Assembly: GCA_000004695.1 (NCBI GenBank)
Contig: CM000153.2
Span: 256,001-320,000 of the forward strand
DNA: 64,000 nucleotides
Reading direction: 5' to 3'
From: Dictyostelium discoideum
Lineage: Eukaryota
In this document: one piece after another, positions 22,421-23,294 of the stretch
Numbering within the stretch: the first letter of the stretch is position 1
Layout of the letters: each line of letters starts with the position of its first letter
Notes under the pieces: generated by a model
What the model saw: only the letters and a program-made list of their open reading frames with translations
What the model was told of the DNA's origin: nothing
The model's database searches: none
Translations under genes and position numbers: made by a program

Positions 22421-22619
22421 ATAATAAAAAAATTAAATTTAATTTTTTAATTAAAAAAAATAATATAAATAAAATTTTTTATATTTCATTTTATTTATTT
22501 ATTATAATTTCTTATGTAATCAAAAATAATAAAATTAATTAGTATTATTTTTTATTTTTTATTTATTTTTTTTAAAAAATTAAAACGATAAAAAAAAAAA
22601 AAAAAAAAGTGTAAAAACT

Positions 22620-22754
22620 TACATCATGAGTACCATGTGAAAAGTTGAGTCTACAAACGTTCACACCAGTTTCAATTAATTTAATTAAAGCTTCTTCACT
22701 CATTGTTTTTGGACCAATTGTACAAACAATTTTGGTTCTAACAAACACTTTCAT
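22620..22754 (-). pseudogene. Orphan pyruvate kinase first exon ([44 protein letters not shown] plus GTAAGT donor), with no downstream PK exons
   Basis: Diagnostic PK N-terminus ([10 protein letters not shown]...LNFSHGTH) followed directly by a GTAAGT donor at 22619-22614. The remaining roughly 470 codons of PK are absent downstream on the minus strand, where the esterase gene lies on the plus strand. Confidence 0.5.
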
Positions 22755-23294
22755 TATAATTTTATTTTATTTTTTTTATTTTATTTTTTAATTTTAATTT
22801 TTAGATATTGATAAAAACACAAAAGAAAAAAAAAAAAAAAAAAAATATTTTCGTTTTTATTTTCTTTTATTTTTTTTTTAGTATTATATAAAAAAAAAAA
22901 TAATTTAATTGTTTTATTTTTTTATTTTTTTTTTTATTTTTATTTTTGTTTTATTTTTATTTTTTTTTCATTTTTTATTTATTTTTATTTATTTATTTTT
23001 TTTAATATCAAAAATAAAATATCCTCTCGTTATTCTTTAAAATAAAATATAAAAAACAAATTTAGTTTTTGATTGAAAAAAAAAAAAAAAATTAAATAAA
23101 ATTAAATAAAGTTTTTATTTTTTTATTTATTTTTTTAAGACTGACTTAAATTGAGATTATTTTTATGGAAATAATTATTCAGTTGGATAAATTTCAAAAT
23201 ATTCAATGGCATACTTATGATGAATGATTTATTTTTAAATTAGTACAACTTTTTTTTAATCAATGTAAAAATATTGAATAATGTAATATAATTA

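Follow-up and report, generated by a model that had tools for sequence, protein, structure and literature searches.

The analysed window, 64,000 nucleotides of Dictyostelium discoideum DNA with a G+C content of ~22%, contains a short open reading frame (ORF) derived from pyruvate kinase (PK), hereafter the relic, that is located on the minus strand between two protein-coding genes (Table 1). Adjoining the relic upstream is an EF-hand gene (the EF-hands are detected by Pfam) that encodes CBP4b (cbpD2, Q9GYD9): its spliced translation is exactly that of CBP4B_DICDI (XP_639251.1), and the read-through form is isoform B (XP_639252.1, 152 aa). On the opposite side, a two-exon carboxylesterase gene on the plus strand converges on the relic and ends ~150 nt past the stop codon of the relic ORF; an esterase on the other strand had indeed been recognized in the original prediction. 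Elsewhere in the window, a poly-Q/N-rich ORF of 1464 aa occupies positions 35263-39657 of the minus strand, with a run of ~100 N near 38.9-39.1 kb that is an assembly gap or a masked stretch, and the extreme GC/AT skew at 36-40 kb is due to CAA/AAC repeats on the minus strand.

The relic consists of 44 codons on the minus strand (22754..22623), from an ATG at 22754-22752 to a GAT codon at 22625-22623, and is directly followed by a GTAAGT splice donor at 22622-22617; the donor had been noticed before but was placed at 22619, three bases off. Read mechanically, the ORF extends to 22572 and encodes 60 aa that are 100% identical to DDB_G0283123 of strain AX4, which is named "hypothetical protein" by NCBI (P0001) and "pyruvate kinase" in UniRef and for which the protein collection contains no source beyond the AX4 annotation and its derivatives. 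The relic is matched by the Pfam PK barrel domain, PF00224, with 56 bits (E=4.5e-15; cut-off, 30 bits) and, in tblastn searches of the window, by Escherichia coli PykF (E=2e-12) and human PKM (E=2.5e-10). The identity to PykF is 68% over 38 aa, and the start lies 6 residues before the TKIVCTIGP motif. However, the complete barrel is absent, the match being confined to profile positions 3-42 of 328, and the C-terminal alpha/beta domain, PF02887, is found neither in the ORF (Pfam) nor in the window (tblastn), whereas full-length PK proteins (P0258 and P0378) carry both domains. There is no further PK sequence in the 64-kb window, with all other tblastn matches (word size 2) at E>2, which bears out, and extends to the entire window, the earlier observation that PK-coding sequence is lacking downstream of the relic. 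Given that the 60-aa ORF retains only 41 of the 507 residues of a PK, the rest of the barrel and the C-terminal domain being missing, its composition excludes PK activity.

A search with the unpadded 44-aa peptide returned only proteins of no more than 77 aa, an apparent length filter, and the parent gene was sought with the same peptide padded with 260 random residues to a length of 304 aa. The best match of the padded query was the PK of D. citrinum, with 98% identity over the peptide, followed by Logan contig P0259 (71%) and the PKs of Cavenderia fasciculata (83%) and Acytostelium subglobosum (78%). In the unpadded search of the representative library, the best identity to the relic did not exceed 76%; this library is clustered at 50%, which is probably the reason why the PK of D. 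discoideum was not among the matches. The complete D. discoideum enzyme, KPYK_DICDI (XP_639190.1, 507 aa), belongs to the 90% cluster of the D. citrinum PK, and its gene presumably is DDB_G0283247. In a BLASTP comparison, 40 of 41 relic residues are identical to KPYK_DICDI residues 19-59, the sole change being M46V, and 122 of the 123 nucleotides of the exon piece are identical to positions 94-216 of the transcript contig L008 (blastn). By contrast, relic residues 1-3 (MKV) have no PK counterpart, and pyk codons 1-18 (MATLSRNLRLSLDTPTST), which are conserved across dictyostelid PKs, are missing; the N-terminus MATLSRNLRL... is common to all dictyostelid PKs compared. The full-length PK gene that the original prediction proposed to look for thus exists, and its exon 1, intron 1 and upstream DNA are homologous to the relic region.

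The full pyk gene is present on three genomic contigs, L006, L007 and L010, of which L006 (from assembly GCA_054883475.1) and L007 represent the pyk locus from two D. discoideum assemblies, and the spliced contig L008 translates to the whole 507-aa protein. On L006, pyk spans 10001-11798, with the true ATG at 10001 and the 5' end of the L008 transcript at or upstream of 9987. The spliced transcript defines an exon 1 of 59 codons (10001-10177) and an intron 1 of 136 nt (10178-10313); the other pyk intron is 137 nt long. Directly upstream of pyk, on the same strand, is a 162-aa EF-hand gene (8266-9055), which an exact look-up identifies as cbpD1, encoding CBP4a (Q54RF4); it is preceded in turn by the gene for eIF2B-epsilon. 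The arrangement in the window matches this, with the EF-hand gene cbpD2 located directly upstream of the relic. As a side observation, read-through PK ORFs from many unrelated eukaryotic contigs, including the non-Dictyostelium contigs L001-L005 that were traced from ORFs P0112, P0117 and P0186, break immediately after NFSHG(T/S/D)H(E/D/K), which is the phase-0 start of pyk intron 1; the intron is explicit in L001, and the site after HGTHE/D looks like an old and widely shared PK intron position.

Table 1. Features of the relic region and its neighbors (window coordinates).
Feature	Position	Strand	Remarks
Carboxylesterase gene	20713..21234 + 21335..22420	+	Pfam COesterase, 5.6e-51 and 7.1e-74; splice model; outside the duplication
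AT-rich spacer	22421..22521	.	Without pyk-locus homology; between the end of the block and the convergent esterase stop codon
Whole duplicated block	22522..24704	-	Copy of the cbpD1-pyk locus, L006 7531-~10295; two internal deletions (~70 bp and 467 bp)
Retained piece of pyk intron 1	22522..22622	-	0 substitutions and 3 indels relative to L006 10178-~10295
60-aa ORF DDB_G0283123	22572..22754	-	3 junk codons, 41 pyk codons and 16 intron read-through codons, then stop
Retained piece of pyk exon 1	22623..22745	-	Codons F19-D59, 123 nt; ATG->GTG (M46V)
ATG AAA GTG	22746..22754	-	From non-coding pyk upstream DNA, L006 ~9579-9587 (ATGAAGGTG)
Copied cbpD1-pyk intergenic region (distal pyk upstream DNA)	22755..23174	-	From the alignment; ~70-bp deletion relative to L006 9267-9340
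cbpD2	23175..23959	-	Exons 23959..23915, 23816..23574, 23465..23304 and 23213..23175

The homology between the window and the pyk locus extends far beyond the coding sequence. In blastn and MAFFT alignments, which agree with each other, window positions 24704..22743 of the minus strand correspond to L006 7531..9590, and positions 22745..22512 correspond to L006 10055..10304. About 2.2 kb are aligned in total, including intergenic DNA, the cbp introns and pyk intron 1, at ~97% identity to the parent locus outside indels (79 substitutions in 1945 positions of the left block and 2 in 223 of the right block, that is, 0.9-4%). The 467 bp between the two alignable parts (L006 9588-10054), which comprise 413 bp upstream of the pyk ATG together with codons 1-18, are missing from the window; the junction separates 22746 from 22745 and lies in a short microhomology, a run of T. 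In the alignment, the source of the relic ATG precedes the genuine pyk start codon by ~420 nt. At the other end, the homology fades at ~22522-22511, in low-complexity sequence within ~20 nt of the 3' splice site of the parent gene, and pyk exon 2 (YHGQVIKN...) is absent after the retained intron from both the alignment and the window sequence.

Retention of intron 1 and of upstream non-coding DNA implies duplication at the DNA level, and a processed pseudogene (retrocopy) is ruled out accordingly. The sequence had been described as the 5' exon of pyruvate kinase, which is accurate with regard to its derivation, but the exon is not intact, given that MKV comes from non-coding DNA and codons 1-18 are missing. 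Similarly, the proposal of a duplicated promoter plus exon 1 was right in postulating a duplicated fragment, although the duplicated unit is ~2.8 kb long and centered on cbpD1, with pyk contributing only its trailing edge. Of the upstream DNA, the distal part was indeed kept, whereas the proximal 413 bp, which contain promoter and 5'UTR sequence, were deleted along with codons 1-18, so that the native transcription start of pyk is most likely gone. The number of substitutions in the pyk-derived piece (2 in 223, compared to the ~9 expected from the left block) raised the possibility of selection or gene conversion acting on this piece; this was judged not significant, given that the cleanly aligned cbp introns likewise differ by only ~1% (2 of 206 nt), so that the difference between the blocks is not compelling.

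Unlike the pyk fragment, cbpD2 is the intact and functional cargo of the duplication. The donor of its last intron (window 23290-23310, minus strand) has changed via a 2-bp deletion to GTATTA, compared to GTAAGT in cbpD1 (L006 8925), which fits the existence of two CBP4b isoforms in AX4, one of 162 aa that is spliced and one of 152 aa (...REVL*) that is unspliced. In exon 2 of cbpD2 (23816-23574), 15 of 243 nt differ from L006 8410-8652, with many of the changes altering residues, whereas the two cbp introns differ between cbpD1 and cbpD2 at 2 of 206 nt only; the contrast suggests accelerated protein divergence after the duplication. CBP4a and CBP4b have been described as almost identical paralogues that differ by one residue (PMC3637376). 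For the whole proteins, the one-residue statement fails: CBP4a and CBP4b are 90% identical over their full length.

The window copy is derived rather than ancestral, because the pyk locus is complete and the N-terminus that it encodes is the one common to dictyostelid PKs. Over the CBP4 region, the p-distance of cbpD2 is 0.028 to cbpD1 of the same lineage, ~0.07 to cbpD1 of L007 and L010, which come from two other D. discoideum assemblies, and 0.18 (17.7%) to D. cf. discoideum (L013). The D. cf. discoideum assemblies each yielded a single CBP4 homologue, whose locus tag comes immediately before the one for pyk (ACTFIY_004861/004862 and ACTFIZ_012720/012721), an adjacency that is confirmed in the L013 locus. 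From these distances and the single homologue in D. cf. discoideum, it follows that the duplication is young, with the proviso that concerted evolution between the CBP4 copies may be an alternative to youth.

The CBP4 segment has additional variants. A third CBP4-like copy is present at L009 10823-12200 (CM142510.1 at ~2.25 Mb, GCA_054883475.1), where the annotation gives a fusion model of 248 aa (P0392); this copy extends into the pyk upstream DNA as far as L006 ~9820, without reaching any pyk coding sequence, and it has several diagnostic bases in common with the cbpD2 copy. Since its endpoint differs, the CBP4 segment has been copied more than once, with variable endpoints. The position of cbpD1 itself may be derived, judging by gene order: in D. 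discoideum and D. cf. discoideum (L006, L007, L010 and L013) the CBP4 gene is located between eIF2B-epsilon and pyk, whereas in D. citrinum (L011 and L012) pyk directly follows eIF2B-epsilon, and a CBP4-like gene is found 4-9 kb downstream of pyk.

Three lines of evidence bear on the chromosomal position of the parent locus. First, in a single record of GCA_054883475.1, CBP4a (KAM9943488) and pyk (KAM9943489) have consecutive accession numbers and CBP4b is KAM9943505, which suggests ~16 genes between the parent locus and the copy. Second, the window is colinear at 55.6-59.9 kb, in reverse, with D. cf. discoideum genes 2-7 kb downstream of pyk and at 47.5-52 kb with the G-alpha, profilin and BRCT genes downstream of D. 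citrinum pyk. Third, tandem paralogous units tie the right end of the window to L006 13.6-21.8 kb. Because of this combination of accession order, colinearity and tandem units, pyk can be placed near the window, probably just beyond position 64000 on the strand of the relic and ~55 kb or more away from it. The tandem units of the two regions (window 57000-64000 and L006 13600-21800) are 72-91% identical to one another, and each unit consists of a gene of several hundred to ~970 aa that has no Pfam match (408-965 aa in L006) and a ~200-aa gene; several such units follow pyk in the AX4-type lineage, and D. cf. discoideum has fewer of them. At 60.2-62.4 kb, this part of the window also contains ORFs with long poly-Leu or poly-Tyr runs.

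We conclude, with a probability of about 0.9, that a young segmental duplication of cbpD1 left the relic at its trailing edge, as a truncated pseudogene fragment of the non-processed type. Under the scenario that we propose, a ~2.8-kb segment, beginning ~730 bp before the ATG of cbpD1 and reaching as far as the 3' end of pyk intron 1, would have been copied to a site beside the carboxylesterase gene, on the same chromosome and in the same orientation, 16 annotated genes away and probably at least 55 kb downstream. The copied CBP4 gene would have survived as cbpD2, whereas the copied start of pyk, lacking exons 2-3, would have been dead on arrival. A later 467-bp deletion then would have taken the proximal promoter, the 5'UTR and codons 1-18 of pyk and, by chance, fused codon 19 to an upstream ATG in the correct reading frame, and gene predictors would subsequently have called the 60-aa ORF DDB_G0283123, reading on into the intron. 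The homology and its limits, both deletions, the existence of an intact parent gene and the identities of the neighbors are direct observations. From the retention of only 41 of 507 residues, the likely loss of the transcription start and the lack of an exon 2 to splice to, we infer that the relic is without function.

The strongest competitor of the pseudogene interpretation, itself unlikely, holds that the relic is transcribed and active, be it as the 3'UTR of, or read-through from, cbpD2, as an antisense RNA to the esterase gene, or as a micro-protein of 60 aa (~46 aa if cryptically spliced). The 60 codons are open and start with an in-frame ATG, ~420 bp of distal pyk upstream DNA are kept, the GTAAGT donor is intact, the exon piece differs from pyk by a single substitution, and the stop codon of the esterase gene is in close proximity. 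However, the deleted 413 bp before the pyk ATG most likely included the transcription start; a 41-residue piece of a TIM barrel is unable to fold alone, and the tail that follows it is phenylalanine-rich intron read-through; the low divergence is explained by youth, given that the flanking introns are equally similar; and the ORF is found only in the AX4 annotation and derivatives thereof. Slighter still is the chance that the chimeric ORF as such (a chance ATG, 41 PK codons and intron read-through) is transcribed and gives rise to a proto-gene peptide or to an antisense RNA that dampens the esterase; transcription may then proceed by read-through from cbpD2 or start within the distal part of the pyk upstream DNA that the copy has kept. 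In that case, the chimeric ORF would capture the birth of a gene from the debris of a duplication.

Far less credible is the suggestion, made in the original prediction, that the relic is exon 1 of a real PK gene whose other exons are far off, beyond a very long intron or joined by trans-splicing. The intact GTAAGT at a phase-0 intron position and the break of read-through ORFs from many other eukaryotic contigs at the same point speak in its favor, but no PK sequence is present in the 22.6 kb downstream or elsewhere in the window, codons 1-18 are missing, and no exon 2 follows the retained intron. The introns of D. discoideum are ~100-150 nt long, and those of pyk are no exception. The long-intron gene has to be abandoned in view of the complete 507-aa pyk elsewhere, which has its own exon 1, used by the spliced transcript contig L008, and its own intron 1 of 136 nt.

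We attach a similarly minimal weight to an assembly artefact, in which genuine cbpD1-pyk reads were mis-joined beside the esterase gene. The region is AT-rich and repetitive, and an assembly gap, the run of N mentioned above, is located ~16 kb away in the window; nevertheless, the copy differs from the pyk locus by ~3% substitutions, many indels and two private deletions, CBP4b is a protein in its own right, listed separately in UniProt and with published mRNA expression data of its own, and its gene is annotated in an independent assembly (KAM9943505.1). The least probable reading, to the point of being negligible, is a remnant of a second, bacterial-type PK acquired via horizontal transfer, as might be suggested by the similarity to E. 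coli PykF and the PykF-like short N-terminus with its start 6 residues before TKIVCTIGP: the relic is 98% identical to the PK of D. discoideum itself, the homology runs into the pyk intron and upstream DNA, and the short N-terminus looks bacterial because the 467-bp deletion joined an upstream ATG to codon 19.

The existence of the ORF in public annotation and the paralogy of CBP4a and CBP4b (PMC3637376) are already known. In the literature searched, no statement was found that connects the pyk fragment to the duplication of cbpD, and searches for DDB_G0283123, DDB_G0283247 or a Dictyostelium pyruvate kinase pseudogene yielded nothing relevant. The present analysis contributes this connection, locates the breakpoints exactly and explains how the false start codon arose. 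In practical terms, DDB_G0283123 would be better labelled as a truncated pseudogene fragment; otherwise, it is liable to be miscounted as a second PK in metabolic reconstructions and analyses of gene families. The clean breakpoints and approximate age obtained for the cbpD1 to cbpD2 duplication bear on studies of CBP4a and CBP4b. Together with the third copy, the relic indicates that a small segment was copied repeatedly in the D. discoideum lineage, which will be unsurprising to specialists.

The relic resembles non-processed duplicated pseudogenes in that the homology runs through the intron and flanks, the sequence is truncated at a breakpoint, an intact parent gene exists on the same chromosome and further deletion has occurred. 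It differs from typical members of this class in having a chance in-frame ATG and in that the annotation presents it as a protein, DDB_G0283123, and not as a pseudogene. Compared with pyk (KPYK_DICDI), the relic shares residues 19-59 (40 of 41), the boundary between exon 1 and intron 1 and the intron sequence, but lacks the proximal promoter and 5'UTR, codons 1-18 and, with exons 2-3, 448 of the 507 residues. With the cbpD1/cbpD2 pair, the relic has in common that it lies within the very block whose duplication made cbpD2 from cbpD1; in contrast to that pair, however, the pyk piece is collateral cargo located outside the CBP4 gene.
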